Part shown: positions 4,862-30,122 of the stretch, piece after piece
Numbering within the stretch: position 1 is the first letter of the stretch
Layout of the letters: each line of letters begins with the position of its first letter
Source: a virus
IMG/VR virus record: IMGVR_UViG_3300027972_000001
Span: 28,169 to 92,168 of that record
Length of the DNA stretch: 64,000 bases
Reading direction: 5' to 3' (one strand)
Translations under genes and position numbers: made by a program
Notes under the pieces: model-generated
Databases searched by the model: none
Seen by the model: only the letters and a program-made list of their open reading frames with translations
Told to the model about the DNA's origin: nothing

Positions 4862-4863
4862 AT

Positions 4864-8556: not shown

Positions 8557-8562
8557 TTTATT

Positions 8563-8886: not shown

Positions 8887-8983
8887 TTTACTGCAATTAT
8901 TGAAAGAACTATGGTTATTAGATATAATAGTCGTAGTGTTAATGATATTAATAATAATAACTAAAGAAAATAAAAATGGCTGA
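8879..8983 (+). CDS. possible 34-aa single-TM peptide
   Basis: MSNLLQLLKELWLLDIIVVVLMILIIITKENKNG*; 8-nt overlaps with both neighbours. Confidence 0.35.
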   Translation: MSNLLQLLKELWLLDIIVVVLMILIIITKENKNG

Positions 8984-10019: not shown

Positions 10020-10025
10020 ATTATT

Positions 10026-10508: not shown

Positions 10509-10567
10509 GCTGGTTTGTTTTCGTAAGGTTAGATGAGGTAACTCTATTTATCATTGTCTTGATTTTT

Positions 10568-11930: not shown

Positions 11931-14900
11931 CTATCCTCGGAAAAGTATATAATACTTATTGGTTTTGTTTATTCGTTGCATCTGTTGTATTTTATTCCAA
12001 ATCGGCACTAACTTAATAGCATTAACTTTAATTTTAAGTTCTTTTGCATATGCACCAGTAACATATCTTCTTTCCTTATCAGTTTGGAAAGGATAGCCAA
12101 CAAGATTAGATATTAATTTATAAGTATCAAGTATAGTACCTTGTACAGCAGCAGGAGATTTTAACATCTTTTGACCTTCATTTATAAGTCCAAATGGAGT
12201 AAACATCATTACTTCACTTAATAACTTATCTATTTCATAAACACTTAAATCATAAGCAAAGTTTTCATCATCATCATCATCAGGTTTAAGATTCTTTAAT
12301 ATAAGTCCAACAACAAGAACTGTAGCAAGATAAATATGATCCAATACGGCTCTCTTAACATTACCTTTTTCAAAATCATCTAATGTATTCCAATAAAGAC
12401 CAATATTAGTAGCAAAATGATGCATATCTTCAAGTATTCTACCCATCATACCATGAAACTGTTTAGCTTCATCAACATCTAAATATTTATGTCTACTAAA
12501 TGGACTTGCTAAAAACTTAAATAAACTAACATATGCTCCCTTATTCCATTCATCTCTACTTTCTGTCCAAAAACTCTTCCAAAATTTAGCACCAAATCTT
12601 TTATTCCAACCAGGACGAACATGTTTTTTAAATTGCATACCCATTCTACCTATAACCCATCTACTTATAGTAGCAGCATCTTCTTTATTATAAATACCTT
12701 GTTGTTTTTGAACTACTTTCAATGCTTTAATTCTAAATAAAGCATATTCATTATCATCTAATTTAGTATTATATTTCTTTCCATCTATTTCAATTTCATC
12801 TTTTAAATCGGCATAACCATCGTCATTTAGATAAAAAGCATCAATAAGTTTAGGATTAGATTCAAAATTAGTAAAAGTAGTCTTATCTAATTCTTTTTTA
12901 GCTTCAACAAATGCATTTCCTTTTATTATAGGGAGATTTAGTATAAAATCACGAAGATAATCTTTTTTAGACTCTTTAAATTCTTCTTTTTTATATCTTT
13001 CTTTTAAATATTCAGCTAAACGTGTTTTTTCAGTATCATCAAGTATTTTATTTAAAGCATCTATATAATTTTGCTGTTGATATTCAGCTAAAGACATTAT
13101 TTTACCATTAATAATTCTATGATGATCTAACATAGATAAAGTACTAACATTCTGCATATAGTGTTCACCTATATCATTAAGAAAATAAGCAGAACTCCAA
13201 CTAAGTAAGTTAGATTTTAACATACCAGTTGTAAAGTCACGTTCATTAGTATTTTGAGCAATATTAAGTTTCTTAATAATTGCATTAGTTAAAGTTCCAG
13301 CTTTAGTGCTTCCTAAATTAATAAGCATATCAGGAATAGCACTCATATACATTTTATCTGCCTTAACTAAATTATTATGTTTAAAATACCATCCAGCAAA
13401 TGCTTCCAGCTGAACTTGTATTTTACCAATCATAACGTTATTAATACCTGCTGTAACATTAAACCACATATTTTTAGCAGATGTAAATTTAAGTAACATA
13501 TTACCAATGACAGTCCATGCACCTTCATCTATATCAAAATTGCCATAAAATATAGCTTCAAGCCATTCAGCAAAATGTTGTTCAAGATTAGTACCTTCTC
13601 CACCAGTAGTTCCTATTACCTCTTTATCTAATGCTTTACTACCAGCTTTATTTTTAAGAAGTTCTCTTTTACTATTTCGTTTAGTAAATTCCATATTACG
13701 TATCTGATATAAACCAAGATCAAATTCATGTTTCATATCAGCTTTTACTTTATACATAGTAGCTTCTCTAATAAATTGAGAAAATACTTCTCCAAGATTA
13801 TAATTTATTTTACCAGCGTGTTCTTCATCATTAAGTTTTCTAATTCTCTTATTTTCAACATATATAGCACCAAGAGTATTAAATTTACCTTTTCCTGCTA
13901 CAGCAACATCTTGAATAACTCTTCTTTCGTAATCACTTTCTAATTCATCTTTTTCTTTAGGAGCAATCTTAATTTCTTCAGTAGTTCCAAAATAATTTAC
14001 CATAGGAACAGTAAGAAGATAAACCATTTCATTATTTTCTCCTACAAAACTATCACTTTGTTTTCTAGCTTTATGGATATCAATCCAATGTTTAACTTTT
14101 TCAGCAATAGTAATATTTTCCTTTTCCTCATTACTTAAACTAGGAATAAATCCTCTATTAAGAATAGTAGCTTTACCAAAATAGTCAGTATATTTATCAA
14201 TTATTTCTACAAACTTTTGATAAAGTTCATCATCTTTAATAGCAATCCAAGCTGGATTAAGATATTTATCAGAAGGAACAGACAGTAAACTATCACTTAC
14301 TAAAAATTGCATTTTACCATCATATTCTCTAACATTACGATATTTCCAAGCATTAAATTCAGGAGTACTTAATTCTTCTTGTTTTCTACGAACTAAGTTA
14401 TTAAATTCTTCCTCAGTTATATTTTGAATTTCATTATCTCTATACCATGCATCTCTACCATTATAATAACTTTGACTATTTCTACCATAAGTCTTAATTA
14501 AATATTTAAATTTAGCATTTTTATCAGTATAGAATTTATCCCAATCATATTTTTGAATAAGTTTACCTGTAGGTTTACCATTTTTGCGTTCAAGATACTT
14601 ATTAAAATCAGCAGTTGTTAAACTAGTAATATTACGTCCACCAAAAGTTTTTCTTAATAATGCTTCAAACTTACCAATTTCTTTACTAGATTCATCTTCA
14701 CCATTTGATACTTTTACCATATATTTTTTGACCATTAATGCAGCAAAAGCATTATTAGTATCAGCAAGTGAATCAAGTTTTAGTTGAATAAGATTTTCAT
14801 CATCACCTATATCTATAATTCTTCTAAGACCGGCAACTATTTCAGGATTCTTAGTATATTGGTAAAGATCTCGTTCTTCAAAATCATTCCATAATTTAGC

Positions 14901-17900
14901 AACTTTAGTTTCAACATTTTTAATACTAGGAATTAAGTTTTGAAGTTGTTTTATAAGATCATTAATTACTTTTTCTTCTTCAATAAATTCATTTCCATCT
15001 ACAGATGTTAAAACATCAAACGAAGTTACCCCTTTAATAAAAGAAGTTGCCCATTTAATAAAGCCGGTAAACTCTTTTCTAACAACAGGATCACTAATAA
15101 TAACATTCATATCCATATTTTCAAACTCCTGAACTCTAGCTATAATACCACCTTTTCTAGTTTCAGTTTTAGGATCATTAAGATCAAAATCATATTGTTT
15201 AAGAACTGTAATTAATCCTTTAGCAAGATTAGCCAAATCATTTTGACCTATAAGTTTTTGAAAATTTTTATCATTTAAAAGATTGGCAGCATCACTAAGA
15301 GTTCCAGCTTTCTTAAATTCTTTAAGAAATTGTATTCTATTAGCATAACTAGTAGTAGTTTTTTCTATGAATTTATTAGCAGAATCAATAGCATTATTAA
15401 TACCTTGATTAGTAGAAGAAGTATAAGAAACAAACTTAATATCTAATTGTCCTTCTTTTTGAGTTTCATTGAGAATTTGTGCTAATGCTCTAGCTTGATT
15501 AATATCACTAGTAGCAAATTTATCAGTAAGTATTTCATTTTTAACAAGAGATCTTAATTCCTCAATTAGTTCTGGATTTTGTTTAGCCCATTCTCTCCAT
15601 CCATCTAAATAATATTGCCATTGTTGTTCTCTAGTTATATCTGTAAGTGCTGGTTTACCTTTACCCTCTTTAATACTATTATATCCTTTAATATCAATTT
15701 GATAATGTTCTTCAATTGACATACTACGCATTAAAGTACTTAATTCTCCAGTGGTATCACTAACTTGCATTAATTTAGCTCCTGGTTTTAAAATAGCATA
15801 GAAAGCACTAAATCTTTTGTCTCCAGCACTAGATACTTCATATCCTCGTGTACTAAAACGTGACCAATTATATTTATTTTCAATTATAAGTTCATTATCA
15901 TCTTCAGTAACTTCTCCTTCTTCACTAATTCCAGTATTACTATCTTTCATTACATCTTGTAAAGTACCAATATACTCATATTCAAACTGAAATAGATCAG
16001 TTCTTTTTTCAAGAGGATGTGAAACAGTAATATCCCAACCTTCTTTCTTACTCCATTCTTCTCTAGCAGGAAGAGAACTAAGATCAATATGAGTTAATTT
16101 TTTAGTAACTTTTACATATTCATCAGTTCCTTTAAGTCTAATATATGTTCCAACTTTAGCTAATTCCCATTTCTGAGCTTCTCCTGTATCAGCATATCTA
16201 GTTGTAGCAGTTCTTTCTCCTGCTCTAACTAAATCTAAAGTACTATTATATTGTTCTAATCCATCTCTGAATGCATCATGAGTTCTAGTATAACTCATAG
16301 GAAGTGGTTCTTTATATATTACTTCATTAACTTGTCTTTGTTTTTCAAGAACATTAATTATTCCAATATAATCATCGGGACTTTGTAATTCACTTCCATT
16401 GAAATCTTGATTATTATCTTCAAATACACTTTGCTCTTCATTTTCAGAATATTCAAGTTTATTTATAGGATAATAATAAAATACACCAAATCTATTGCCA
16501 AATGTATCTACATTTACAAAATTATCATATCTTTGAAACAATTGATATTTAACTCCATCTTTAGTTGTTTTTCCTAATTTTATAACTTGTCTTTCTTTAA
16601 CTCTATTGGCTATACGACCAGTAGGAATATTATCAAGAGTTTTAGCAGGTATAGATATTATACCTTGTTTATTTACTTGAAAATATCTAACTTTACCACC
16701 TGTTGTTCCATCTTCATTTTGTGTAGTATTATCTATATATTTTAATCCACTTGCATCTGGAACAATTTTATCTTCTGTCCAATGAGATTTAATATATCTT
16801 TCTTTATAGTTACTATTAAATATAAGTTGGCTACCAGCATCTAAATCTGCATCTAAATCTTTTTCATCAAATAATAAACGATTTACAAGATTTAATTTTC
16901 CATATAAATGAGTACTTAATCCAATACCTTTTTCATTATAACTACCTTCCATAAATGGTTCATTACCATAATAGAAAACAGTATTTGGAATTATTTTACT
17001 AAATGAACTAAATCCAAATCCAAATCCATTAGTAATATATTCATATTTAAGTAAATTTCTAGCAACAATTTTTTCAAGTATATTTTCACTATACCAAAGA
17101 TCATTAAAAGATTGACTTACTTTATCTAGATTCTCATTATTAATATACTCAACTTTATAATGACGATTACGTTTTAATTCTTGTGCTTGTGTACTAACTT
17201 TTAAACTATTAATAATATGATTTTCATCATATTTAAGTTGATCATGTAAAAGTATAATTTGATTAGCAAGACTAAGTTGTTCAAAATCAGTAATACTTTC
17301 AGGATTTTTTAAATCTAAATTTAAATTTAATTCAGTATTAATACCAAGAAGAGTTCTTTTTTCTTCAATACTAATATCATTTAACCAAGGAAGATCTTTA
17401 AGTAAACTATTATTTAAATAACTAGTAATAGATTCAGCTAATTTTTTATCATATTTTTTATCAGTAACATAATCATTTAATTTACTTTTAATAAATCTAT
17501 ATAATTCACTTTGACCAATAAAATATTCTCCAAATGCTTTGACACTTAATTGATTAGAAAATATAAAAAATTGTTCAAGAGTAGGATAAACACTTGGTTT
17601 AGTTAAATTAAAAAATTTAGGAAATATTTGGTGCATAGCACTTGTATCATTTATTTCAAGTATACCTACCTTTTCAGTTCTATTTATATCAAATTCAAGA
17701 GAATGAGTAACATCAAATGTAGGTCCAGCACCTAGAGTATCAGTATTCAATACATGAGTACCATCAGTAATTGCATCTGAATATGCTTTATAATGTTTAA
17801 AAGTTTCAATAATTTGAAGTTGGTAACGAAGATGATTTTCAATTTCTTTAAGTCTATTAGTATCTGGATTTTCACTTGCAAGAATATCATTAATTTCTTG

Positions 17901-20900
17901 CATATTACCAAAATCATCTAACGTAACTGTATTTACATTGTTAAGTAATGTTTCATGATTTAATGTAATTCCTAAATTATTTTTATAACCTAAATAGTCA
18001 TATTGTTGATTTCTAACTGCATCTTTACCGCCAATAAAAATTGACTGTTTATTATTAATCTTTTCATCCCAACCTTTATTATGTTCTGCATCACCTTTAA
18101 TCATTACACGATATAAAAGTGTTTGAAATTTACGTTTAGTTTGTTCAATTTCACTACCACGTTTAACATTATTTAAATTAGCAAATAAAGTATTAACAAG
18201 ATCATGTATAATAGGTTGATTAATAAATGCTGTACTTACTTTAAATGTAGAACCTAAACTAACAAGCATTTTCCAAATATTAACAGTATATTCATTAACA
18301 TTTCTTGGAAGAGGAAATGCTACATTATCAAGAATATTTGCAGTAGTTTGTGCTGAATATGAACTTATGAGTTGTCCTTCAACATTTTTAAAAGTATTAT
18401 TAGGATTATTATTAATAAATCTATGAGTTACTATTGCATATTCTTTAGTATTATTTGTAGTGCCTCTAGTTTCAAATCTAACATCTTTACCATAATTTTC
18501 AATAAGTTGTTTTTTCTGTTCAGGATTAACAATATATTCAATAATAGGTAGAGTAATGTTATTATTTATATTATTTTTTTCATCTTTGAGTCTTTCTGTA
18601 AGATGTATTCTTGCAACTTGAGCAATAGAATTAAATCTATCTGATGCTAAACTAATACCTTTCAAATCTCTACCTTGATGTGATTTATCTCTATAATGTT
18701 GCTGACCATCAAAAGTAAGGTTATTAACTCTTTGATCAATAACATTGAATTTTTCATCAATCTCTTTTTTAGATTCAGTAATAGATTTAAAGTTAGATGT
18801 AGCTATAGTTTCTGCATAATGATATTTATTAGTTAAAATACCATAATATATATTTAGAATTTGATTTTCTCTAGCTTTTCTAGTATTTTGTTCAAGTATT
18901 GGTAAAGAAGATATAATTTCTTTAACTCTAGCTTTCACATTTATATATTCAACTTTATCTTTAAAATATATATATGCTTCATCACTCATTATTTGAGCAA
19001 ATACTTCAGCTTTTTCTAAATATAATGCTTTCTTCTCTTTACCTTTAGCTTTACTAATTCTTTTATTTATAGAATCAATTTTATCAAATTGCGGTTTATG
19101 TTTTTTATTAACTTCAGAAGTTTTATCAAGACTATCATAATATTCTTGTTTAGCTTCATCTAATGAAGTAACTATATCAATTAATTTATCATTATTTAAT
19201 TTAAGAGCTAGTATATGAACTAATTGAGAATGATCTTCCATTATAGCTTGAGCTCTACTATCAAGATTATTATCTTCTGTATAGGGAATACGTTCTACAG
19301 TATATATAGAAGTAGGTTTATTATCAACTATTTCAGTAGTTACTTTAGTATGCAAATTATATATAAATGCATATACATGATCCATATCAAAATCAGATCC
19401 TGTTTGAGTTACAAAATCATCAGGAAGAACAATACTTGGACCATTATCATCAGGAAGAAAACCAACAACTTTAAATACATAAGCACTATATTTGGCTTCC
19501 ATAGGAATACGATAACCAACCATAGTTCTAACTTCATCAGATAAAGTATTTATATCAACATATTCTCCATCTTTATAAAATTGTTTTGCCCATCTTGGAA
19601 GTAATACTTCAGCTTCTTGTACCATTCCTTCTTTTTCATCAAAAAGAATAGTAGAACGAAGTTTAATATCATTACGATTAATAACTTTACCAGCAGGATT
19701 AGTTTTAACACCTACGCTTTTGTGCCAGTTAATTCCATCAATAGATTCAAGATCTGACCATTTAACACCTTGTTTCTTATTCATGAATAAACTAGACATT
19801 TGAGCACCATGAAGTCCAGGAAACTTCTGGTTAGTTACACCATTAGTAAATAATGATGTAAGAATATGTTCACATTGAGCACTTTGAGTATTAAAGAAAA
19901 TAGGAACTCTGGAATCACCAGTATCTCCAATTTGAACACTAAATAATAAGTTTTTACTTAAATTACGATCAATTCCTTCTTTTTCAAGAATATCTACAAT
20001 TACATTATAATCTATATCACCTATAATATTTCCATCTTTATCAACTCTAACATCAAATGGTAATAAAGTTTTAATAGCACTTTGAAATACATTACTATTA
20101 ATAAGTTCAAAGTAATGATTTTTTAATTCAACGCCATTTAAAGTTTTACCATTGACTATATAATCAACACCAGTATCAGGAATATTTTCTATTATTTTTT
20201 TAGCAAATTGTCTACTTAAAGTAATAGTTTCTTCAAAAATAGCATCAGGAACTTCTAATTGCATACGTAATCCTTCATAATTATAATTACGTTTAGCTTT
20301 AATAAGTTCTTTTTCTAAAGTATCATCGTCTACTATATTACCATCTTCATCAGCAATAGTTGCAATATATAATGAACCAATTTTTTCAGCACTTCCAAGA
20401 TTTATTTGAGGAATATCTAATTTTATCATTATCTTATTAAGACTATCTAGTTGAAGATCTTTAATAAGAGCTGGTGTTAATATAATCTCTGCATTCTTAA
20501 CTTGAGTGGGAATCATTTTTTGTAAATCATCATTACGATCTATACTATAATAAAAGTTCTTTTGCATAGATGCAAAACGCATAGTATCTTCTCTATTTAA
20601 TTCTCCACCATTTCTAACTTTATTTAAAATAGTAGAATACTGTTCAGTTAATCCAAATCCATGAATACGTTTTTCAAATTCATCAAAGGTAACAAATGAT
20701 ACAGCATTAGCACTATCATTAGATAGATATGGAGAAACTAAATTGTATATTTCTTTTTCTTCAGGTCTAAATAATGTCTGTTCTTTATCATTAATAACTA
20801 TTTTATTAGTTGATAATTCTTTATCAGTATAGATTTTTTCAAGTCTACTAATACGAACTTTATCTTTATTAATATTAAGAGCATAAAGTAAAGTATTAAT

Positions 20901-23900
20901 TTTATGTCTATATATTTTAGATTTTAATTTAACATCAGAAATTGTTGCTCCAGAATAAAATCCTTTATGTACACTTGGAATACCATTTGCGATAATTTGT
21001 CTACCACGTTTATTTAAATCAATATTACTCTTGTAGTCAGCTACACTACCATAAAATAATCTAACTTGTTCTACATTAAAAAGATAAGTATTAAGAGCAT
21101 ATTCAGCAATAGCATTATTAAAATTTTTATCTTTTAATATAAATGTTTTATCTTCTCTACCTACATTCTCTTTTTTAACATATGCTGTTGTTAAAAAATC
21201 TTTATATACACTTAATTTTTCATCAGCAATATTAATTTGTTGTGAAATAAAACGTAATATAAATTGTTCTAATCTATTTTTAAAGGTAGAATTAGGATCA
21301 CCTTCAATAAGTGGAGTATGAATAGCAGAATTTAAAGAATTAGATAACATTAAATATTTAATAAAATTAGTGTTATTAATAAAAATACTATTAAAAGTAA
21401 TTTGTTTATTACCCATAGTAACAGTAAGATTATTAATATCAAAAATGTTGCCACTACTTGTTGTATCTAATCTATAAGTTCCGTCTGTATCTTTAGTGAA
21501 AGTTAAATATTTCTTAACACCATCTTTAAGTTTATAATGATAAAATAATTGTCCAGATTTAACATCATTTTGAAATTCTTTTTTAAGTACAAATCCAAAA
21601 TTACCATCATCAATAGCTTTACCATCTTTAAGTTCAAATAATACTTGTTTTGCAGTATTCATTGCTATTAGTTCATCAATAGCATTTAAATATATTGCTT
21701 TAAAAATTGGAATTTCTCTTACTAATTCAAGTGATTTATTAATATCAGTTTCTTTTTTAGCAAGTAGTAATTTAGTATAGTCTACAAAATTTAATTCAAT
21801 GATAGGTGCTTCAAATAATCTAGTATTTTTTCCATCTGAAGGATTTATCATTGGAAAAATAGCTGTAAGTTTTTCATTAACTTCTTTTTTAGTAGTAATT
21901 TTACCACCACCAAAATAATAAATTAAATTTCTTAATGTCCAATCATATTTAGTAAGTTTATGATATTCAGTAGCAATTCCCTCAGTAAGATCTTTGGTAC
22001 CACTATATCTAAAACTCTTAAAATTACTAAGATTAGTAGTATTTATAGTAGTTGCTTTTCTTATTCCGTCTACTATTTTATAATCAAATATACCTCTACC
22101 TTTCTTAACAATTTCATTATCTATATATTCATCCCCCCATAAAAGAAGAGAGTGTTGATTAGATAGAATTGTTGTATAATTAATTAGAGCATTATAAACA
22201 CTATCATCACCACCTTCAAGTTTCTTAAAGAAATTACTTAAAGAATCTGGTTTATTAGCATCAAACACTAAATTACCAGTAACATTTATATTGCTAAAAC
22301 TGAAATGATCTTCTCTAAAATATTTAACTTTCTTAGCTAAACGAAGAAGATTACCAAATTCATTAAATATTGTTTTAGGTGTGGCTTGTAATCTATCAAT
22401 ATAAGGTGTTTCATATAGTTTATATTTTACTCCAGGAATACCTTTAATATTACGAAGTGGAGTAATTATTCCATTAATAAATTCATTTCTATTGTTTAAA
22501 TATTCATAATTAATACTATCTAAAGTAATATCAATTCCAACTAAATAATATAATTGAACTATATTAGCACCAATTTCAGGATCTAATTTAGTAAAATTAG
22601 AACTAAGTGTTGCAGTTTCTTTATATAATTTATCATAATTTTCAATCCAATCTTTATCATAAAAATTATTTTCACCTCTACTAATAATTAAATTAGCCCA
22701 TTTATCAGCGATATGATATTCAACTGCATTTCTATTAACATTAGTTAAGGTAAGTTCTGTAGTTTCATAATCTCCAGTATAGTCAGTTCTAATTAAATCT
22801 CTATATGAATCAATAATAGCTTTATCAAAAGATACAAACCAAGCATTAAGTAAATCTGGATTATTACTAAGTTCTTTATGAATACTATATAAACTTTTAG
22901 CAAATACACTTTCTTTATTAGTAGCATAATTAAATAATGCGGTAAGCATATCTTCTTTAGTAAGACAACCACGCATTAAATCCATTATCTTATTTCCTCT
23001 TTCAGCATAAACAAGAGTATTAGCAAAACCAGTAGGAGTATTAGTATTAGTTCTCCATATAATTTTACCATCTATTATTTGAATACTATTAGGATCTAAT
23101 TCATATGTTTTATTAATAAGATTTTTAATTTGATCATTTACTGTAATTAAAGGGTTAACAATAACTACATCACTACTATCCCAAGATTTATCAAGTAATT
23201 CAACATCTTCTATATACTCTTCTTTTTCATTTATTTTATAACCATATTGATTACTTAAATGAATTCTAAAATATTTCCAAAATCTATCATTACTACTAAG
23301 TTCTTCAAGAACTTTAGTAATAAGAACTTTTTGATCATAAGTGAGAGTGCCTTCATTTTTACGAAGAGTAGCTTGTTTAGCTAGTTCTCTAACTAAATCA
23401 CTTCTAATTGCATTAGGATCAATATCTTTACCTTTAACTCCTTTATAAGAAGCACTTACTTTTTCAATAAATAAGTTACTAAGAACATTAAGAACATTAA
23501 CTTCTTGGTCTAATTCAAATGGAGAACCAGTAAGTTCTTTATTAACAGTAGAAGAATAAGAAATTGATTTAACATCTTTTTCAGAAATTATTGTATGAAT
23601 TTGTTCAGGTTTGAATACTATATATTCTTTTATTTTTATATTAAGATCTGTTGTGTTTAAAATTATACTGTCATATCCTTCTCTTTTAGCTCTTTCTATT
23701 ACTTGTGGTTTAGTTTCTTTAATATTAATACTTGGAGTGAAATCTTCTATTAATGGATTAATGATATTTAATACTACTTCAGTAATAAAAGGAGTTCCTG
23801 CTCTATATTCAGACATTTTTTTAGCATGTTCTATAGAATCTGAAAAGAAAAATCCTTTTGATATATATTGTTTATTTTCTGTAAAAGTTTTTATTTCTCC

Positions 23901-26900
23901 TTCTGGACTACCATGATAAAGAATATCTTTTATTTTGCTATCTGGAAAAATATTATTTAATTCATTTTTAGTCTCACTAGTAAAACTAACTATAGGTTTT
24001 TCAACAGGTTCATCTTCTGCAAATTTATCAAGAATATCATCATATTCATCACGATTAGAAACTTCACCTAATGTTGTTTTATCTATAGTACTTTTAATAT
24101 CTCCACCAGTAATAAATTGTTCAAATATATAATTTAATTCATCAAGTTTAGTACTAATGCCAAAAGTTTGTGCAAGTTCTCTTATTATCTGTTTTAATTT
24201 AGCCCAAAAACTAGTAGTAACTTTACCTTCAGTAGTTTTAACTGTATCAAGAAATTTAGCAAAATCAGTATCAGTAAGACCATATGTAAGAAGTTCTTCA
24301 ACATCTTTCATATTTAAAATGCTGATTAATTTATTTTCTATTTCAGTTCTATCTTTTTTCTCATTTAATAATTTATATTCAGGAGTAGTAAATAAATCAG
24401 ATTTAAATTTGTTAAGTTGTTCAATTAATTTAGTTTGTTCTTCTTTACTTCTAGTTCCAACTAAAGCATGTATAGTATCATGTACTAAAGCAAGAGTTGC
24501 ATCAACTTTATTTTTCTTATATAACTCAACCCAGGTTTTAGTTACTGTTATAGATTTATTAGAAGGTGTGTAATACACCATAGATTTTCTACCAGTTTCT
24601 TTATCAGTTTTAGTAACATCTAATGCACCATTAAATGTAATTTTACCACTTTTAATAAAAGTATCAAGAATTTTAAATATAAAGTCATATCTTTTATCAA
24701 ATTCATATTCACTACTAAATTTAGCAAAACTTGGAGTTTTAGTAACATTGGTCTTTAAATGACTTGTATCTATATTTACAATTAAAGGTACACCACCAAC
24801 ACCATCATATTGAGATAAAGTGAAATTACTAATCTTCTTACCATTTTTATCAACTAATTGTCCAACATCTGTAAGAATAGTATTACTACTAATTAAATAT
24901 TCTTCATATGAATTGTGTTTATTACCAAGAATATCAGTAAATATATTTCCATCAAAATAATCATAATTAATATTTCTTTCAAGAGAACCTAATTCATCTC
25001 TAAATTCTCTCTCATTTATTGGTTTAGTTATTTTAGTATTACCTTCAATACGTTCGTATCTAAATTTATTATTATAAAAATCATAAACAAAATAAGTTCC
25101 ATTACTATTAAATCTAATATCTCTATTAGTAACCATTAGAACATTAAAATGTTCTTGTTCATGTTGAATATTGATAATCTTTTTAAGTTCTGTAATTATA
25201 TTACTTGCAGTAAGATTATGTCCCTCAACAACAACTTGATCATTAATTCTAAATGCTTCACGAGCAAGTGCTTGTGTTTTACCAAGTTCAATAATTAAAT
25301 CTCCAATTTTTTCATGTAATTGTTTAACATTATCATCTTTAATTAAATTACTATCAATGCTATTTAATTTTATTGGAACAGGAGTAACTTTACCACTTCT
25401 ACCTACAACCCCAACAAGAAAAGAAGATGCAAATGTTGGAATAGTTCCTTGTTTAGTTATAGTTTCATTCTTATCTCTAGTATTTTCAATTACAGTTTTA
25501 TTAGAATTATTTTGTATTTTAAATAATTTAACTTTACTAGGATTATCAATTACAGAAAGATTTCTATATTTAACATTTCCTTTCTCATCTTTACTTTTAA
25601 CTAAAGTTCCATCAGTAATATATGTAATTTTACTTTCAACAATTTTATCAATATCTATTCCAATAATTTCTCTAAGTTTAGTATTCTGAATATGATCTCT
25701 AGTAAGTTTATCTTTCCAACGAACTATATTTGCAATAATTTCATTTCTTCTTAATTCAATAGGAGTAACACCATCTGTATTCTGTCCATAAAACATAACA
25801 CGAGCAATATGAGTAAAAGCTTTCATACCTTGCTCACTTCTAATATCAATATCTCTACCTACTAAATCATAAAGAAGTTCACGAATATCAGCATCTATAA
25901 GTTCCAAATATATTCTAGAAATAGTAGTCTTGCTTTCATTCATTTTTTTAGCATTAAAAAATGTTTGAATAAGTGGGAGCAATCTACCAATATATTCTAT
26001 TTTATTATTACTAGTACTTATATCATTAATTATAACGTCTGTCCAGTCTTTACCATTAAAACGATACTTAACTCCGGCATGCATACCACTTAAAGTACTG
26101 ACTGCAGCAATAGGAGTACGTTTATTTCCACTTATTGCTTCAATTATAATAGGTATAGTTTCTTGGTTATTCTTATTTTGGTTGAACCCCTGATCTCCGG
26201 ACAATTCAGTATTGACATGGGCAACTACCTGTGAATTTTCAGCCAAAGAGTTCAAAAGAGCATTAACACGTTCAATATCTTTATCATCTACAACCTGATC
26301 ACCATTATCATTACGAGTAGTTTCTAAATTATAAAGAAATGCTCCTAATACTTCTTCACCACCAGTAGGAGTTACATTATTTATATTACTAATTTGAGCT
26401 TCTTTAAATTCATCTTTAAGTCCATAAGATTCAATAATCTTATTAACATCAGTCTTTTTTAAATTATCATCAGTATTATAAATACGTTTCTGACCTTCTT
26501 CACCTATTTTACTACTTCTAATAATACTATACGCCTGTTTAAGATATTCAAAATCTTCTTTTAATCTTTGAACACCAACTAGTTTACCATATTTAGCAGC
26601 AATAAGTTCAAATTTAAAGAATGTACCATGTTCTGCAGATTCAACAAATAAAGGAGTACCATCATTTATAATTCTAGTTATCCATCTATTTGCCCTTGCA
26701 ACTATATTTTTTGTTATGGGGTTTTGGGAAGTAAAATCAACAACAGATAGAGTTAAATCAGTAATATTAGTAGATTTATCTGTAAGTTTAGAGATTTCTG
26801 CATCATATTTAGTATTAATTTTAGCTTTTAAATATTTTTCAGAAATTTCTATTGCTTTATTTAGAGCAGTTTCACGATTTTTTTCTAGTTGTTGTAAATT

Positions 26901-29900
26901 TTTATCATAAATAGCACCTTTATTAGCTCCAGATTTTACAAAATATTCATCAAATTCAGTTTTTGCTTTTGTATAATCATCTATTAAATCTTTTGACATA
27001 CCACTTTTTAAAGCACTTTCTATATTAAATAATGTGGTTTTTAATTCTTCTTGTCTACGTTTTTCAATATCAACTATTAAACTAGAAAAATTATTAGATG
27101 ATTCTTGTTTATACGCTTGTTCTTTAATTTCTTTTTCTATTTCATCTAATTCTTTGCCATTCAATGCAGATTTAAATTCTTCAGCATTATTAATATGTTC
27201 TTGTGATTTATTACTTCCAGTAGGAGTAGTTGTTTCAGTATTAGTTATATATCCAGCAATAACAAGAAATTCATTTATAAATTCTTCTATTACATTTCCT
27301 TTAGTAAGAGCATTAAACATATTATTTAAAGCATCTCTTAACTGATTTCTAGTTGCCTGACCATACATATCAAATAAACTAGGATCAGATAACATAGCAA
27401 AGAAATCACCAATACTATTAAGTGTATTAGGATCTGTAGGTTTTGCTATTTCTTTAAGAATAGTATTTGCAAAATGTGTACTACGTTTTCCAGTGAATTG
27501 ACTTTTAACACCTACAACACCTAACTTAAGAAAAGCATCAGATAATTTATTAACAAGTGCTGTATTTTTGACTTCTACATTACTACTACTTTGTTCATCA
27601 GCAATCATTAATGTTTTTTGATTTACTAATATACTTCTTCTTTTTTCAAGAACATCAATATATGCTTCTAATCTATCTTTATTTAATTTCTTAGTAGGTT
27701 TAGCTTCAGTAACAAAAGGATCTAAATTATCTTTTTTAAGTTGTTCTAAAGTATCATCAATAACTTTAATTTTAGCATCCATTGTAGAACTAGTATCTAC
27801 TTTAGGATCTACTTTAGTATTCTCACCTATTTTAACTCTAAATGTCTCAAATTGTTTACTATATTCTTTATCAGTTTCAACTTTAAGTTTATTCTCAATA
27901 GTAGGAATACTCTTGTTAGTATTCATTACTTCTTCATATAAACTATTATCAACATGAAGAAATAATTCATAAACTTTAGCTTCTGCTTCAGCTTTTATAA
28001 TATCATTAATAGAATCAAAGTCACCTACTGCTTTATTATCTCCTAACTCTTTATCATGAAGTTTAAATTCATCTTTATATTGCTTAACTTTCTCTTTAGC
28101 AATATTCTTAGCAATTGGATCACCCCACTCTTCTACTTCAGTGTCAAGATATTTAATAACTTCAGCATTAATAAGATTATCTAAAGTTCCCTCAAAATCT
28201 TTATCTTTATTTTGTTCTTTAAGAGCATCTAAAGCTGGATTATTAGTTCGTAAATTAGTTGCTCTTTGTTTAGCATTATTACGCAATTTAGTTGTTTGTT
28301 CAACTTCAAATTTCTTATTTATTGCTTCATTAATAATGAGATTTCTTAAATGTGGTTTACTACTTGTTGCAGTAAATATTTTGTTATATGTTGCTTTAAA
28401 AGTATGTTCGGCATCAAGAATATTCTTTTTAAGACTGACTAAATCTTTACTAAAATTAACTTCATCTGTCAATCCAAGTTCAATCATTTTCTTTTTAAAT
28501 CCTTCATGTTCAACCATCTCAAGTAATGAATTAATATTACCTGAAAGTGAAGCATTAAATCCAAGATCATATCCTAATACTGTTTTGACTCTATCAATCA
28601 TATCCTTTTGAGACTGTTCAATAGTTTCTTTATCACCAACAAAAGGAGTATTAGTATTTATATTAATTCCTTTTTGAATGTCACTAATATTATTAGCACG
28701 ATTAGCAAGTTTAATATATCTATTTTGAATTTCACCAATCTTCATTTCAGTACTATGAGGATCTTTGAAATCATTAATAGTTTCTTTTATAGAACCAATA
28801 GTACGTGCACCACCACTGAATGCTACACCACCAGCAAATCCCCAAAATGCTTGTTCCCAACTACTAGGATCTTGAAGATATTCATGTATTCTATCTACAA
28901 AATCTTTATCTTTTTCACTACCTAATAGATGTTTACCATACCAATTAGCATCAGATTGAGAAATAGCATTTACAAGTTCTTCTACTCCTTCTGTCATTTG
29001 CTCACCAACTAACACAGTTCCCCCCTTAAAAAAAGAAGATGCGTTGAAACGTGGTTTAGTAATAACGCCAGGTTCTAATATATTAGCTTGTGCAGCTTTT
29101 ACTTTAGCACTTTCTAGCCAACCTGCAGTTCTAGTTTTAACTTTAAATCCTTTAAATATTGGAGCAAGTTGCATTGCATCAAATATAACATTGACTGCAT
29201 TCATACCATAATCTTTCCATGCTCCTTTACTAGCTATAAAATTAGCAAGTTCAAGTTTATCTGGAGTTCTACCTTCTGCAAGAAACTCTTGTCCAACTTC
29301 AGAATTTAGAACTTTTTGATATTCTTCATCATCTTGAAATAATTTAAATGCTTCTTCTTTAAGCGTATTAAATACTCCACTAGCTTCTCTCATATTTTCT
29401 GCATTACGCATAGCAATAGCAGAATGAGTAAGACCTTGCCAATATTTTTCAGTAGCAAATATATCAGATGCAGCAATAAATGCTTTAGAAACACCTGTCA
29501 TTTTATTAAGTCTACTAAGTGCAGCAATTTTTTGAAGTCCTTTACTAAAATAACCAGCAGCTTTAGCTTCACCAAGTGCAGGAATTAACATTCCTAAAGT
29601 ACTAAATACACTAACAGCATTGCTAGTCCACCATCCAAAATCTTTCCAATCAAATGATTTACCAGGATTATATCTAAATATAGGAGTTTTATTTCCTAAT
29701 TCTTCGGTAATATTATCTGCAAATTTAGTCATAAAATTACTAAAATCTGCATCTCTTCCTGCTATTTCATCTGCAATAGCATCAGGTAATTCCAATAACC
29801 CACCAACACCACCAATAACTCCTTGAGCAAGTATTTCTCCTATTACACCTTGACTAAACATATTACCTACTTTACTCCAAGCAGATTGATTCTGAGCAGC

Positions 29901-30122
29901 CTGACGTTCTAAATTAACATTAGGATATATTTCATCTATAAAACGTTTATATTTATCACTATTTGGCTGGTATAAACTTAAATCAGAACTAATATTATTC
30001 ATATTAGTATCAATCTTAAATTTACTATTAATTGGTGCTATTTTTTCAACACTTTTTGGAGTAACAGTAAGAGAAGGATTAATCTTTAACCCTTTATTAA
30101 TAGGAGTAAGTTCGTTAGTCAT
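11931..30122 (-). CDS. giant virion-associated RNA polymerase polyprotein (crAss-like), 6063 aa
   Basis: Two-barrel RNAP catalytic loop GSDFDMD (19380-19400) preceded by VGYRIP; zincin-like HDTIH; position after muzzle and cargo genes as in crAss-like phages. Confidence 0.92.
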   Translation of the reverse strand: MTNELTPINKGLKINPSLTVTPKSVEKIAPINSKFKIDTNMNNISSDLSLYQPNSDKYKRFIDEIYPNVNLERQAAQNQSAWSKVGNMFSQGVIGEILAQGVIGGVGGLLELPDAIADEIAGRDADFSNFMTKFADNITEELGNKTPIFRYNPGKSFDWKDFGWWTSNAVSVFSTLGMLIPALGEAKAAGYFSKGLQKIAALSRLNKMTGVSKAFIAASDIFATEKYWQGLTHSAIAMRNAENMREASGVFNTLKEEAFKLFQDDEEYQKVLNSEVGQEFLAEGRTPDKLELANFIASKGAWKDYGMNAVNVIFDAMQLAPIFKGFKVKTRTAGWLESAKVKAAQANILEPGVITKPRFNASSFFKGGTVLVGEQMTEGVEELVNAISQSDANWYGKHLLGSEKDKDFVDRIHEYLQDPSSWEQAFWGFAGGVAFSGGARTIGSIKETINDFKDPHSTEMKIGEIQNRYIKLANRANNISDIQKGININTNTPFVGDKETIEQSQKDMIDRVKTVLGYDLGFNASLSGNINSLLEMVEHEGFKKKMIELGLTDEVNFSKDLVSLKKNILDAEHTFKATYNKIFTATSSKPHLRNLIINEAINKKFEVEQTTKLRNNAKQRATNLRTNNPALDALKEQNKDKDFEGTLDNLINAEVIKYLDTEVEEWGDPIAKNIAKEKVKQYKDEFKLHDKELGDNKAVGDFDSINDIIKAEAEAKVYELFLHVDNSLYEEVMNTNKSIPTIENKLKVETDKEYSKQFETFRVKIGENTKVDPKVDTSSTMDAKIKVIDDTLEQLKKDNLDPFVTEAKPTKKLNKDRLEAYIDVLEKRRSILVNQKTLMIADEQSSSNVEVKNTALVNKLSDAFLKLGVVGVKSQFTGKRSTHFANTILKEIAKPTDPNTLNSIGDFFAMLSDPSLFDMYGQATRNQLRDALNNMFNALTKGNVIEEFINEFLVIAGYITNTETTTPTGSNKSQEHINNAEEFKSALNGKELDEIEKEIKEQAYKQESSNNFSSLIVDIEKRRQEELKTTLFNIESALKSGMSKDLIDDYTKAKTEFDEYFVKSGANKGAIYDKNLQQLEKNRETALNKAIEISEKYLKAKINTKYDAEISKLTDKSTNITDLTLSVVDFTSQNPITKNIVARANRWITRIINDGTPLFVESAEHGTFFKFELIAAKYGKLVGVQRLKEDFEYLKQAYSIIRSSKIGEEGQKRIYNTDDNLKKTDVNKIIESYGLKDEFKEAQISNINNVTPTGGEEVLGAFLYNLETTRNDNGDQVVDDKDIERVNALLNSLAENSQVVAHVNTELSGDQGFNQNKNNQETIPIIIEAISGNKRTPIAAVSTLSGMHAGVKYRFNGKDWTDVIINDISTSNNKIEYIGRLLPLIQTFFNAKKMNESKTTISRIYLELIDADIRELLYDLVGRDIDIRSEQGMKAFTHIARVMFYGQNTDGVTPIELRRNEIIANIVRWKDKLTRDHIQNTKLREIIGIDIDKIVESKITYITDGTLVKSKDEKGNVKYRNLSVIDNPSKVKLFKIQNNSNKTVIENTRDKNETITKQGTIPTFASSFLVGVVGRSGKVTPVPIKLNSIDSNLIKDDNVKQLHEKIGDLIIELGKTQALAREAFRINDQVVVEGHNLTASNIITELKKIINIQHEQEHFNVLMVTNRDIRFNSNGTYFVYDFYNNKFRYERIEGNTKITKPINEREFRDELGSLERNINYDYFDGNIFTDILGNKHNSYEEYLISSNTILTDVGQLVDKNGKKISNFTLSQYDGVGGVPLIVNIDTSHLKTNVTKTPSFAKFSSEYEFDKRYDFIFKILDTFIKSGKITFNGALDVTKTDKETGRKSMVYYTPSNKSITVTKTWVELYKKNKVDATLALVHDTIHALVGTRSKEEQTKLIEQLNKFKSDLFTTPEYKLLNEKKDRTEIENKLISILNMKDVEELLTYGLTDTDFAKFLDTVKTTEGKVTTSFWAKLKQIIRELAQTFGISTKLDELNYIFEQFITGGDIKSTIDKTTLGEVSNRDEYDDILDKFAEDEPVEKPIVSFTSETKNELNNIFPDSKIKDILYHGSPEGEIKTFTENKQYISKGFFFSDSIEHAKKMSEYRAGTPFITEVVLNIINPLIEDFTPSINIKETKPQVIERAKREGYDSIILNTTDLNIKIKEYIVFKPEQIHTIISEKDVKSISYSSTVNKELTGSPFELDQEVNVLNVLSNLFIEKVSASYKGVKGKDIDPNAIRSDLVRELAKQATLRKNEGTLTYDQKVLITKVLEELSSNDRFWKYFRIHLSNQYGYKINEKEEYIEDVELLDKSWDSSDVVIVNPLITVNDQIKNLINKTYELDPNSIQIIDGKIIWRTNTNTPTGFANTLVYAERGNKIMDLMRGCLTKEDMLTALFNYATNKESVFAKSLYSIHKELSNNPDLLNAWFVSFDKAIIDSYRDLIRTDYTGDYETTELTLTNVNRNAVEYHIADKWANLIISRGENNFYDKDWIENYDKLYKETATLSSNFTKLDPEIGANIVQLYYLVGIDITLDSINYEYLNNRNEFINGIITPLRNIKGIPGVKYKLYETPYIDRLQATPKTIFNEFGNLLRLAKKVKYFREDHFSFSNINVTGNLVFDANKPDSLSNFFKKLEGGDDSVYNALINYTTILSNQHSLLLWGDEYIDNEIVKKGRGIFDYKIVDGIRKATTINTTNLSNFKSFRYSGTKDLTEGIATEYHKLTKYDWTLRNLIYYFGGGKITTKKEVNEKLTAIFPMINPSDGKNTRLFEAPIIELNFVDYTKLLLAKKETDINKSLELVREIPIFKAIYLNAIDELIAMNTAKQVLFELKDGKAIDDGNFGFVLKKEFQNDVKSGQLFYHYKLKDGVKKYLTFTKDTDGTYRLDTTSSGNIFDINNLTVTMGNKQITFNSIFINNTNFIKYLMLSNSLNSAIHTPLIEGDPNSTFKNRLEQFILRFISQQINIADEKLSVYKDFLTTAYVKKENVGREDKTFILKDKNFNNAIAEYALNTYLFNVEQVRLFYGSVADYKSNIDLNKRGRQIIANGIPSVHKGFYSGATISDVKLKSKIYRHKINTLLYALNINKDKVRISRLEKIYTDKELSTNKIVINDKEQTLFRPEEKEIYNLVSPYLSNDSANAVSFVTFDEFEKRIHGFGLTEQYSTILNKVRNGGELNREDTMRFASMQKNFYYSIDRNDDLQKMIPTQVKNAEIILTPALIKDLQLDSLNKIMIKLDIPQINLGSAEKIGSLYIATIADEDGNIVDDDTLEKELIKAKRNYNYEGLRMQLEVPDAIFEETITLSRQFAKKIIENIPDTGVDYIVNGKTLNGVELKNHYFELINSNVFQSAIKTLLPFDVRVDKDGNIIGDIDYNVIVDILEKEGIDRNLSKNLLFSVQIGDTGDSRVPIFFNTQSAQCEHILTSLFTNGVTNQKFPGLHGAQMSSLFMNKKQGVKWSDLESIDGINWHKSVGVKTNPAGKVINRNDIKLRSTILFDEKEGMVQEAEVLLPRWAKQFYKDGEYVDINTLSDEVRTMVGYRIPMEAKYSAYVFKVVGFLPDDNGPSIVLPDDFVTQTGSDFDMDHVYAFIYNLHTKVTTEIVDNKPTSIYTVERIPYTEDNNLDSRAQAIMEDHSQLVHILALKLNNDKLIDIVTSLDEAKQEYYDSLDKTSEVNKKHKPQFDKIDSINKRISKAKGKEKKALYLEKAEVFAQIMSDEAYIYFKDKVEYINVKARVKEIISSLPILEQNTRKARENQILNIYYGILTNKYHYAETIATSNFKSITESKKEIDEKFNVIDQRVNNLTFDGQQHYRDKSHQGRDLKGISLASDRFNSIAQVARIHLTERLKDEKNNINNNITLPIIEYIVNPEQKKQLIENYGKDVRFETRGTTNNTKEYAIVTHRFINNNPNNTFKNVEGQLISSYSAQTTANILDNVAFPLPRNVNEYTVNIWKMLVSLGSTFKVSTAFINQPIIHDLVNTLFANLNNVKRGSEIEQTKRKFQTLLYRVMIKGDAEHNKGWDEKINNKQSIFIGGKDAVRNQQYDYLGYKNNLGITLNHETLLNNVNTVTLDDFGNMQEINDILASENPDTNRLKEIENHLRYQLQIIETFKHYKAYSDAITDGTHVLNTDTLGAGPTFDVTHSLEFDINRTEKVGILEINDTSAMHQIFPKFFNLTKPSVYPTLEQFFIFSNQLSVKAFGEYFIGQSELYRFIKSKLNDYVTDKKYDKKLAESITSYLNNSLLKDLPWLNDISIEEKRTLLGINTELNLNLDLKNPESITDFEQLSLANQIILLHDQLKYDENHIINSLKVSTQAQELKRNRHYKVEYINNENLDKVSQSFNDLWYSENILEKIVARNLLKYEYITNGFGFGFSSFSKIIPNTVFYYGNEPFMEGSYNEKGIGLSTHLYGKLNLVNRLLFDEKDLDADLDAGSQLIFNSNYKERYIKSHWTEDKIVPDASGLKYIDNTTQNEDGTTGGKVRYFQVNKQGIISIPAKTLDNIPTGRIANRVKERQVIKLGKTTKDGVKYQLFQRYDNFVNVDTFGNRFGVFYYYPINKLEYSENEEQSVFEDNNQDFNGSELQSPDDYIGIINVLEKQRQVNEVIYKEPLPMSYTRTHDAFRDGLEQYNSTLDLVRAGERTATTRYADTGEAQKWELAKVGTYIRLKGTDEYVKVTKKLTHIDLSSLPAREEWSKKEGWDITVSHPLEKRTDLFQFEYEYIGTLQDVMKDSNTGISEEGEVTEDDNELIIENKYNWSRFSTRGYEVSSAGDKRFSAFYAILKPGAKLMQVSDTTGELSTLMRSMSIEEHYQIDIKGYNSIKEGKGKPALTDITREQQWQYYLDGWREWAKQNPELIEELRSLVKNEILTDKFATSDINQARALAQILNETQKEGQLDIKFVSYTSSTNQGINNAIDSANKFIEKTTTSYANRIQFLKEFKKAGTLSDAANLLNDKNFQKLIGQNDLANLAKGLITVLKQYDFDLNDPKTETRKGGIIARVQEFENMDMNVIISDPVVRKEFTGFIKWATSFIKGVTSFDVLTSVDGNEFIEEEKVINDLIKQLQNLIPSIKNVETKVAKLWNDFEERDLYQYTKNPEIVAGLRRIIDIGDDENLIQLKLDSLADTNNAFAALMVKKYMVKVSNGEDESSKEIGKFEALLRKTFGGRNITSLTTADFNKYLERKNGKPTGKLIQKYDWDKFYTDKNAKFKYLIKTYGRNSQSYYNGRDAWYRDNEIQNITEEEFNNLVRRKQEELSTPEFNAWKYRNVREYDGKMQFLVSDSLLSVPSDKYLNPAWIAIKDDELYQKFVEIIDKYTDYFGKATILNRGFIPSLSNEEKENITIAEKVKHWIDIHKARKQSDSFVGENNEMVYLLTVPMVNYFGTTEEIKIAPKEKDELESDYERRVIQDVAVAGKGKFNTLGAIYVENKRIRKLNDEEHAGKINYNLGEVFSQFIREATMYKVKADMKHEFDLGLYQIRNMEFTKRNSKRELLKNKAGSKALDKEVIGTTGGEGTNLEQHFAEWLEAIFYGNFDIDEGAWTVIGNMLLKFTSAKNMWFNVTAGINNVMIGKIQVQLEAFAGWYFKHNNLVKADKMYMSAIPDMLINLGSTKAGTLTNAIIKKLNIAQNTNERDFTTGMLKSNLLSWSSAYFLNDIGEHYMQNVSTLSMLDHHRIINGKIMSLAEYQQQNYIDALNKILDDTEKTRLAEYLKERYKKEEFKESKKDYLRDFILNLPIIKGNAFVEAKKELDKTTFTNFESNPKLIDAFYLNDDGYADLKDEIEIDGKKYNTKLDDNEYALFRIKALKVVQKQQGIYNKEDAATISRWVIGRMGMQFKKHVRPGWNKRFGAKFWKSFWTESRDEWNKGAYVSLFKFLASPFSRHKYLDVDEAKQFHGMMGRILEDMHHFATNIGLYWNTLDDFEKGNVKRAVLDHIYLATVLVVGLILKNLKPDDDDDENFAYDLSVYEIDKLLSEVMMFTPFGLINEGQKMLKSPAAVQGTILDTYKLISNLVGYPFQTDKERRYVTGAYAKELKIKVNAIKLVPIWNKIQQMQRINKTNKYYILFRG

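Follow-up and report, generated by a model that had tools for sequence, protein, structure and literature searches.

A crAss-like transcription polyprotein with an ADP-ribosyltransferase and predicted ASCH-fold and NADAR-fold accessory cassettes

We analyzed a 64,000-nucleotide stretch of viral DNA (the window; positions 28,169 to 92,168 of the IMG/VR virus record IMGVR_UViG_3300027972_000001), which has a G+C content of about 25-30% and comes from a 92,168-bp genome with direct terminal repeats that is rated complete. Positions 11931-30122 of its minus strand form a single open reading frame (ORF) of 6063 codons with an ATG start. In an earlier note made from the letters alone, this ORF had been described as one protein with the catalytic core of a crAss-like RNA polymerase (RNAP) and with four small modules set off by acidic or Thr-rich linkers: an ADP-ribosyltransferase (ART)-like, a zincin-like, an ASCH-like and a NADAR-like one. 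The open frame, the tblastn matches and the catalytic motif DFDMD agree on the 6063-residue RNAP protein, each of the four modules was found where the note had placed it, and acidic linkers between modules can be read in the translation, for example EEGEVTEDDNE between the ASCH-like and NADAR-like domains and DEYDDILDKFAEDEPVE before the ART. Our analysis establishes the family or fold of these domains, the accessory and modular nature of three of them, and a coupling of the ASCH-like to the NADAR-like domain. The features of the ORF, with amino acid (aa) positions and the evidence for each, are as follows.

11931-30122, minus strand: the whole ORF, a crAss-like transcription block in which a gp45-like zincin protein, a gp44-like RNAP and a C-terminal subunit are fused (ORF translation; collinear tblastn blocks against cr107_1, Rudgehvirus, Carjivirus communis and crAss002)
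28152-30065, minus strand: N-terminal block, aa 20-657, conserved as the homologous start of the gp45-like protein in crAss phages (tblastn, 27-31% identity, E 2e-47 to 4e-51)
26727-26741, minus strand: fourth copy of the junction motif, aa 1128 (motif count)
24096-24797, minus strand: zincin-like metallopeptidase region, aa 1776-2009 (alignment to relatives; tblastn to the ZnMc part of a Rudgehvirus protein)
24468-24482, minus strand: HDTIH motif of this region, aa 1881-1885 (motif search)
23976-23990, minus strand: VSFTS copy of the junction motif, aa 2045-2049, directly ahead of the ART (motif count)
23580-23924, minus strand: ART-PolyVal ADP-ribosyltransferase cassette, aa 2067-2181 (Pfam PF18760)
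23550-23564, minus strand: ISYSS copy of the junction motif, aa 2187-2191, directly behind the ART (motif count)
16407-22343, minus strand: RNAP block, aa 2594-4572 (tblastn to annotated RNAP catalytic subunits)
19380-19394, minus strand: catalytic motif DFDMD, aa 3577-3581, inside the RNAP block (motif search)
15963-16268, minus strand: domain of the ASCH (PUA-like) fold, aa 4619-4720; its motif reads GERTATTR (AlphaFold2 model, Foldseek, VIA)
15453-15875, minus strand: divergent NADAR-fold domain of the phrog_9995 family, aa 4750-4890 (phrog_9995 match, E 7e-33; AlphaFold2 model; structure searches)
15417-15431, minus strand: VSYTS copy of the junction motif, aa 4898-4902, directly behind the NADAR-like domain (motif count)
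11943-14453, minus strand: C-terminal block, aa 5224-6060, conserved with its homologue in crAss gp44, the C-terminal part labelled 'unknown RNAP subunit' (tblastn, 26-28% identity, E down to 3e-89)

The phage is a divergent crAss-like one, and the backbone of the protein is that of crAss-like phages. Tblastn of the whole protein against four reference Crassvirales loci showed it to be collinear with two consecutive reference genes. The upstream one, which in Carjivirus is gp45 (1957 aa, annotated as 'RNAP associated protein fused to zincin protease'), was matched by aa 20-657 and aa 1706-2024, and the RNAP gene (gp44 in Carjivirus, 4070 aa) was matched by aa 2594-4572 and aa 5224-6060. By this collinearity, the ORF is the fused form of the crAss block. 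Some crAss-like phages were previously described as having the three proteins joined in a single chain, and the zincin domain was described as well (Drobysheva et al. 2020). The arrangement is like that of phi14:2 gp65/gp66/gp67 and crAssphage gp45/gp44 (Drobysheva et al. 2020; Yutin et al. 2021) in its collinear blocks, its DFDxD motif and the location of the zincin region in the upstream protein. The N-terminal block is also kept in the proteins P0124, P0158, P0195 and P0266. A comparison of aa 3001-4600 with GenBank phages by tblastn returned 89 records, mostly of crAss-like phages, with about 25% identity and E down to 3e-70, and the matched genes carry the annotation of RNAP catalytic subunits. 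The DFDxD motif and the homology to gp44/gp66-type proteins thus assign the polymerase to the crAss-like two-barrel RNAPs. A sequence search of the PDB with both halves of the protein (phmmer) gave no match. A hydropathy scan of the whole chain found one strongly hydrophobic 19-residue window, at aa 5924-5944 (window 12290-12352, VLDHIYLATVLVVGLILK), which is a possible membrane-inserting part of an ejected C-terminal portion.

The ART, ASCH-like and NADAR-like domains lie outside the conserved blocks. Two stretches of the protein, aa 2024-2594 and aa 4572-5224, were unmatched in the references, and all three domains are inside them: the ART between the zincin and RNAP parts, and the ASCH-like domain followed by the NADAR-like domain between the RNAP and C-terminal parts. 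Moreover, profile scans of five reference Crassvirales genomes (cr107_1, Rudgehvirus jaberico, Carjivirus communis, crAss002 and phi14:2), with the window's own genome as a positive control, detected neither ART-PolyVal nor any match to the ASCH-like and NADAR-like family profiles anywhere in them, which distinguishes the protein studied here from its reference counterparts. The protein P0265 is 42% identical to that of the window across aa 589-2052 and again from aa 2167, and lacks the ART segment between. In P0127 (46% identity over aa 2232-6063), a different domain occupies the exact slot of the NADAR-like one, with conserved sequence on both sides; it has a sub-threshold Pfam match to DUF4326 (18.5 bits, cut-off 25). 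Other giant proteins bear the ART at quite different positions. Clearly, the ART, ASCH-like and NADAR-like domains are variable accessory cassettes, swapped or missing in sister proteins, and do not belong to an invariant crAss RNAP core, just as the earlier note had supposed.

Some borders of these cassettes are marked by a short repeated motif. The pattern [VILF][SD][FY][TS]S has four copies in the protein, compared with 0.15 expected, and none of 2000 shuffles reached four. Two copies flank the ART and one follows the NADAR-like domain. The sister genes P0187, P0125 and P0127 start aligning at about aa 2181-2232, near the ISYSS copy, and the counterpart of VSYTS reads SSYTSS in P0125 and SSYSSS in P0127. 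These motifs may be either cleavage sites or recombination scars left at cassette junctions.

The ART was recognized by its sequence. Its match to PF18760 scored 38.3 bits over profile positions 8-136 of 140, above the curated cut-off of 31.2 (46 bits in the genome scan), and its motifs YHGS, GFFFS and E-Y-I-V-F, which provide the His, the aromatic residue and the Glu of the ART catalytic triad, align with those of P0267, P0252 and P0136. The prediction of an ART-like domain at this place was therefore correct. Tblastn of the ART against GenBank phages gave one weak match, to a Dolichospermum phage, and a search of viral contigs with the zincin and ART segment found no related loci.

The ASCH-like domain could be assigned by its fold. 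An exhaustive HMMER search collected 141 representatives of its family. The AlphaFold2 model, built with 28 short members as the alignment (predicted local distance difference test (pLDDT) score of 89), has the ASCH beta-barrel fold; the top Foldseek matches were all ASCH proteins (probability 0.99-1.0), and a VIA structure search ranked Escherichia coli YqfB first among them (Z 9.1, root-mean-square deviation (rmsd) 2.5 A, 92 residues), with PH0355 (Z 7.8), the ASCH protein 3s9x (Z 7.8), EF3133 (Z 7.2) and ZmASCH (Z 6.7) behind it. The distant PUA-like readers EVE and YTH ranked after the ASCH proteins. As for sequence profiles, Pfam ASCH (PF04266) had weak matches in 10 of 29 family members (best E 0.0039) and none in the window copy. 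The domain thus shares with YqfB, which is an N4-acetylcytidine amidohydrolase, and with ZmASCH and PH0355 the PUA-like beta-barrel and a motif of the G-x-[KR]-T-x-T-x-R type, in which Gly, Thr, Thr and Arg are invariant in the family. Unlike these proteins, it has Arg at the position of the motif Lys, so that GERTATTR departs from the G-x-K-x-x-E-x-R type. We take the corresponding motif of YqfB to be AGRKTITIR. The two differ also in where they occur, as the family studied here is found mainly inside giant phage RNAP or polyvalent proteins, sometimes nested in NADAR-like or DUF7831 domains. Among the 141 representatives, 92 are at least 1000 aa long, and 66 of these 92 have similarity to crAss-type RNAP or a D[FY]DxD motif, indicating that the ASCH-like domain is a common accessory of environmental crAss-like RNAP giants, with variable positions. 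The earlier proposal of an ASCH-like domain is borne out by the fold.

The NADAR-like domain matched phrog_9995, a family annotated as of unknown function. A search for homologues found 974 clusters (clustered at 90% identity). Most of their members are proteins of about 125 aa that stand alone and have about 50% identity, and none had a Pfam annotation except where fused to DUF4326. The AlphaFold2 model based on an alignment of 106 family proteins (pLDDT 93) has a YbiA-like alpha+beta fold. When it was compared by VIA with 48,161 solved chains, the three solved NADARs ranked first: 8bat, the DarG1-type NADAR of Geobacter (Z 9.2, rmsd 3.4 A, 126 aligned residues), 8bau from Phytophthora (Z 7.3) and 2b3w, which is E. 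coli YbiA (Z 7.2). The next chain had a Z of 3.7. By Foldseek, 8bat was the sole high-probability match (0.93), and the weak rows from the viral models of BFVD were mostly annotated NADAR proteins. The assignment of T4 AdfN to NADAR was made from the same three structures with similar Z values (PMC11825919).

The conserved residues of the family partly resemble those of NADARs. The catalytic residues of NADARs reside in an E-H-x-[FY]-Q-x-x-K helix and in an acidic residue of the last strand (PMC11543638, PMC11125620). In the alignment of the phrog_9995 family, E60, K68 and D123 are invariant and Y63 and Q64 nearly so, and the window copy, which reads S-I-E-E-H-Y-Q-I-D-I-K, keeps every invariant residue. 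The YbiA helix reads SEHYFQAQK, with the same spacing as in the family except for the Lys, which is at +8, and D123 comes after the last strand of the model. As judged from the alignment, E60, Y63-Q64, K68 and D123 resemble the helix motif and the last-strand acidic residue of NADARs, and a low-confidence local hhalign alignment placed the motifs in the same order as in NADARs. Thus, the domain is like AdfN (T4 gp30.3) and the DarG1/NADAR antitoxins (PMC11825919, PMC11543638, PMC11125620) in its YbiA-like fold, in the structures that it matched, and, as judged from the alignment, in the conservation of a Glu, aromatic-Gln and Lys helix motif along with an acidic residue near the last strand. 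Unlike them, it shows no Pfam or profile similarity, is shorter (about 125-140 aa) and is devoid of the D-x-x-W-G loop. It also differs in its setting, inside a predicted virion polyprotein and paired with an ASCH-fold domain.

The company kept by this family is also typical of NADARs. NADAR and Macro domains are typically fused to DUF4326 and SLOG (Iyer et al. 2022, PMC9503650); NADAR-like proteins fused to DUF4326 were found, the metagenomic protein P0134 combines the NADAR-like domain with a SLOG domain of the cpYpsA type and with a 2OG-Fe(II) oxygenase, and an ART is present in the same chain in three proteins. Outside giant proteins, the N4-like Achromobacter phage Axy24 (MK962641.1, 1804-2193) has a standalone phrog_9995 gene, the fifth from the left end and upstream of the RNAP genes, and phiKZ-like jumbo phages carry a phrog_9995 gene too, for example phiKZ PHIKZ082.1; the genes in Axy24 and in the phiKZ-like phages are annotated as hypothetical. 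By analogy, we count the early-region position in Axy24 in favor of an early action of the family. Two apparent links to DUF4326 were set aside or kept as leads: an hhalign probability of 89% between the NADAR-like and DUF4326 segments was rejected, as the segment boundaries had overlapped the NADAR-like domain, and in the ESM Atlas the nearest named clusters of the NADAR-like domain were DUF4326 proteins with a score of 0.79, which is below a meaningful level. Separately, we observed a canonical NADAR, with 35% identity to E. coli YbiA, inside a 10.2-kb 'hypothetical protein' gene of the cyanophage Microcoleus phage My-WqHQDG (OR578708.1, CDS 322-10554), which is thus a further giant phage protein with a NADAR.

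The strongest new observation concerns the relation between the ASCH-like and NADAR-like domains. Both are present in 18 representatives of the ASCH-like set. In 8 of these 18, all of them metagenomic proteins, the ASCH-like domain is inserted in a loop of the NADAR-like one, so that the hidden Markov model of the latter matches in two halves around it. In P0134 (705 aa), the order is the N-terminal half of the NADAR-like domain, the ASCH-like domain, cpYpsA SLOG, the C-terminal half of the NADAR-like domain and the 2OG-Fe(II) oxygenase. DUF7831 of P0168 (254 aa) is likewise split by an ASCH-like domain, and in P0211 and P0252 the ASCH-like domain adjoins an ART. It thus seems that small phage enzymes regularly host an inserted ASCH-fold domain. 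Its nesting in the NADAR-like domain implies that the two work as one unit, and in these arrangements the ASCH-fold domain acts like a companion of ADP-ribose enzymes, with a recurrent ASCH-like/NADAR-like unit. A complex prediction for the two domains, made without controls, scored 0.00 and provides no evidence either way.

The zincin-like region was identified by its location and homology. Its segment aa 1706-2024 matched by tblastn the C-terminal part of a Rudgehvirus protein that is annotated as ZnMc_tr (E 5e-7), and Carjivirus gp45 has HESLH at a comparable position. In an alignment with metagenomic relatives, the motif reads HExxH in P0266, P0124 and P0267, and HDxxH in the window protein and P0265, meaning that the canonical catalytic Glu is lost from the HExxH and downstream Glu signature in the protein studied here. 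A string EE(L/I)LTYGLT (EELLTYGLT in the window), about 50 residues downstream of the motif, is common to the window protein and the aligned relatives and is a candidate source of the third zinc ligand. The nearest neighbors of the region in the ESM Atlas were LPD23 'large polyvalent protein' clusters (scores 0.96 and 0.95), some of which also bear ART-PolyVal. Hmmscan of the region gave no LPD23 match. LPD23 may be a zincin-derived domain. Thus, the zincin-like nature that the earlier note had attributed to this segment stands, but its status as an insert does not, since the segment belongs to the conserved portion of the gp45-like protein. Another HExxH-like string, HEQEH (aa 1654-1658, window 25147-25161), lies about 230 residues upstream of HDTIH and may be due to chance.

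The giant gene is co-directional with the gene of the major head protein (PHROG 11589, E 2e-63) and with the genes of two adjacent proteins of the ConA-like lectin and carbohydrate-binding kind:

45872-48607, minus strand: 911-aa protein with Laminin_G_3/ConA-like lectin and CBM_4_9 domains
48607-50607, minus strand: 666-aa protein with Laminin_G_3/ConA-like lectin and CBM_4_9 domains

The latter two probably serve as tail fibres or in receptor binding, with a polysaccharide as their target. Co-directional with the head and lectin genes, the giant gene closes the structural gene block, as the crAss-like transcription block does. The ORFs upstream in the window had no tblastn match in the reference crAss loci, and hence synteny of the neighbors could not be demonstrated by sequence.

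Proteins of this kind have been described as polyvalent proteins (Iyer, Burroughs, Anand, de Souza and Aravind 2017, PMC5512222). These are giant proteins of virions or of conjugation systems in which unrelated enzymes are combined, usually with a zincin metallopeptidase that may set the parts free. Here, RNAP, ART, zincin-like, ASCH-fold and NADAR-fold domains are combined in one ORF of a virion gene module. As this ORF is a crAss-like virion transcription block in the form of one polyprotein, it is a polyvalent protein in the sense of these authors.

We consider it probable that the protein is a crAss virion transcription polyprotein whose three accessory cassettes, the ART, the ASCH-fold domain and the minimal NADAR-fold domain, are delivered to the host with the DNA. 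Virion packaging, cleavage, catalytic activity and targets are what we infer, along the following lines. The chain would be packaged in the virion, might undergo cleavage at the junctions with the repeated x-S-[FY]-[TS]-S motif, and would enter the host together with the DNA, so that its enzymes would be present ahead of any phage gene expression. The ART would ADP-ribosylate host targets, as does T4 Alt. The ASCH-like and NADAR-like unit would bind nucleic acid and strip ADP-ribose from bases, as AdfN does against DarT1, or, alternatively, would process small molecules derived from ADP-ribose. The ejected polymerase is plausible as a delivery chassis because the homologous blocks are virion proteins in phi14:2: g067 of this phage is annotated as a virion protein from tandem mass spectrometry, and gp65 to gp67 orthologues were reported in virions (Drobysheva et al. 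2020). By analogy with these proteins, the window protein would be packaged as well. A more specific form of this proposal is one that we put forward tentatively: the phrog_9995 family would be a minimal and so far unrecognized NADAR clade, widespread in phages (phiKZ-like jumbo phages, the early region of N4-like phages and crAss-like RNAP giants), that acts with its adjacent or nested ASCH-fold reader as a base de-ADP-ribosylase, in this phage on the ejected RNAP, clearing DarT-type lesions from the entering genome at first transcription, and its slot would be a swap site for NADAR-like and DUF4326-like cassettes.

Several observations weigh against this interpretation. The NADAR assignment is one of fold and context, and sequence comparisons lend it no support. 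Pfam NADAR (PF08719) had no match in the protein (E <= 1) or in the genome, even though it was found in three control genomes, and hhalign of the family against an alignment of nine NADAR sequences gave a probability below 1%. The Lys of the helix motif is at +8 from the Glu in the family, compared with +7 in NADARs. In addition, an alignment of the family with YbiA alone by hhalign was insignificant, and its profile returned chance rows only from the PDB sequences. Of the NADAR-like domain proposed in the earlier note, the fold and context therefore hold, while the sequence profiles of Pfam and hhalign do not recover it. The link between the two partner domains is not general, as about 120 of 140 sampled ASCH-like-bearing proteins are without a NADAR-like domain, and the ASCH-like domain may be a general RNAP accessory. 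Since Arg replaces the usual ASCH Lys, a YqfB-like amidohydrolase activity is doubtful, and self-processing by the zincin domain is uncertain because its motif reads HDxxH.

The presence of an ART and a NADAR-fold domain in one chain could also mean that the latter acts in cis as an antidote against the ART of the same phage, as in the DarT1-NADAR and YarT-YbiA pairs. Such an antidote would protect the packaged DNA and the cell that produces the phage from ADP-ribosylation up to the point of cleavage and ejection. ART/NADAR toxin-antitoxin pairs are established (PMC11543638, PMC11125620), and the two domains share a polypeptide in the window protein, P0136 and P0246. However, these three are the only ones with an ART in the same chain among the 18 sampled NADAR-like-bearing proteins, leaving 15 without, and no ART was detected in P0125, the closest relative with a NADAR-like domain. 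Hundreds of standalone homologues in phiKZ-like and N4-like phages likewise do not fit a cis antidote. Moreover, the clade of ART-PolyVal has its relatives among ARTs that modify proteins (PMC5512222), whereas NADARs act on base-linked ADP-ribose. We therefore regard this explanation as unlikely. The writer and eraser kit suggested in the earlier note survives in that both folds are encoded in one chain; the pairing itself is weak, given the few NADAR-like proteins with an ART.

It is somewhat less improbable, though still doubtful, that the NADAR-like domain and the weakly DUF4326-like domain in its place in P0127 degrade small immune signals or toxins derived from ADP-ribose and not ADP-ribosylated nucleic acid, the ASCH-like domain simply helping the RNAP to bind nucleic acid. 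It was argued that low-molecular-weight ADP-ribose derivatives are the main targets of the NADAR, Macro, SLOG and DUF4326 domains of phages (Iyer et al. 2022, PMC9503650). The fusions of the NADAR-like family to DUF4326 and SLOG, and the fact that most ASCH-like domains in RNAP giants are without a NADAR-like one, agree with such a division of roles. On the other hand, the eight proteins with nested ASCH-like and NADAR-like domains and the one with an AlkB-type 2OG-Fe(II) oxygenase suggest that the substrate is a nucleic-acid base, and all phage NADARs tested so far strip ADP-ribose from DNA guanine (PMC11825919, PMC11125620). Very improbable in our view is that the inserts have no enzymatic role, having decayed or serving only a structural purpose, for instance as spacers or as aids in packaging or ejection. 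This could account for the zincin motif without its Glu and for the Arg in place of the usual Lys in the ASCH-like motif, and crAss RNAP blocks are known to evolve very fast (PMC7886860). It is at odds with the retention of the His, aromatic and Glu residues by the ART, with the full set of family invariants in the NADAR-like copy (more than 100 aligned sequences with 50-60% identity) and with the high confidence of both the NADAR-like and ASCH-like models. Taken together, these comparisons leave the delivery of accessory enzymes on an ejected polymerase polyprotein as the explanation that we favor.

The concept of such delivery has already been published. Fusions in which an N4-like virion RNAP is joined by a zincin metallopeptidase and an ART were described, with a proposed role like that of Alt (PMC5512222), and virion-packaged ARTs and NADARs were proposed later (Iyer et al. 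2022, PMC9503650). The protein studied here is like the N4-like polyvalent RNAPs (PMC5512222) in being a giant protein of the virion module that joins an injected RNAP, a zincin-like metallopeptidase and an ART (Tox-ART-HYD2/ART-PolyVal), and for those proteins host modification at the onset of transcription and a possible autoproteolytic release of modules were proposed (PMC5512222). In contrast to the N4-like RNAPs, which are T7-like single-subunit enzymes, its polymerase is of the unrelated two-barrel crAss type, and, unlike in the N4-like polyvalent proteins, its zincin motif reads HDxxH. The words 'NADAR' and 'ASCH' have zero occurrences each in Iyer et al. 2017 (PMC5512222), and neither this paper nor Iyer et al. 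2022 (PMC9503650) mentions the NADAR-fold family or its ASCH-fold partner. Among the papers listed in a search of the literature, none was, by title and abstract, on ADP-ribose modules in crAss-like RNAP proteins. Thus, the claim that the combination on one virion RNAP was undescribed holds for the specific combination and for the ASCH-like/NADAR-like unit, but not for the concept of delivery or for the joining of RNAP, metallopeptidase and ART (PMC5512222, PMC9503650). What is new is the crAss-type polymerase as a carrier, the cryptic NADAR-fold family and its ASCH-fold partner.

Phage NADARs were shown experimentally to remove ADP-ribose placed by DarT1 on phage DNA (PMC11825919). A large phage family with a NADAR fold (974 clusters) that is invisible to sequence-based NADAR surveys would widen the known reach of ADP-ribose counter-defence. 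The nested ASCH-like/NADAR-like unit is compact, with about 250 aa, and is open to direct tests against DarT1-type defence, and the ART cassette flanked by the repeated junction motif offers a handle on how 690-kDa chains may be cut. N4-type and crAss-type virion RNAPs, although unrelated, would have converged on carrying ADP-ribose enzymes on an injected polymerase polyprotein.

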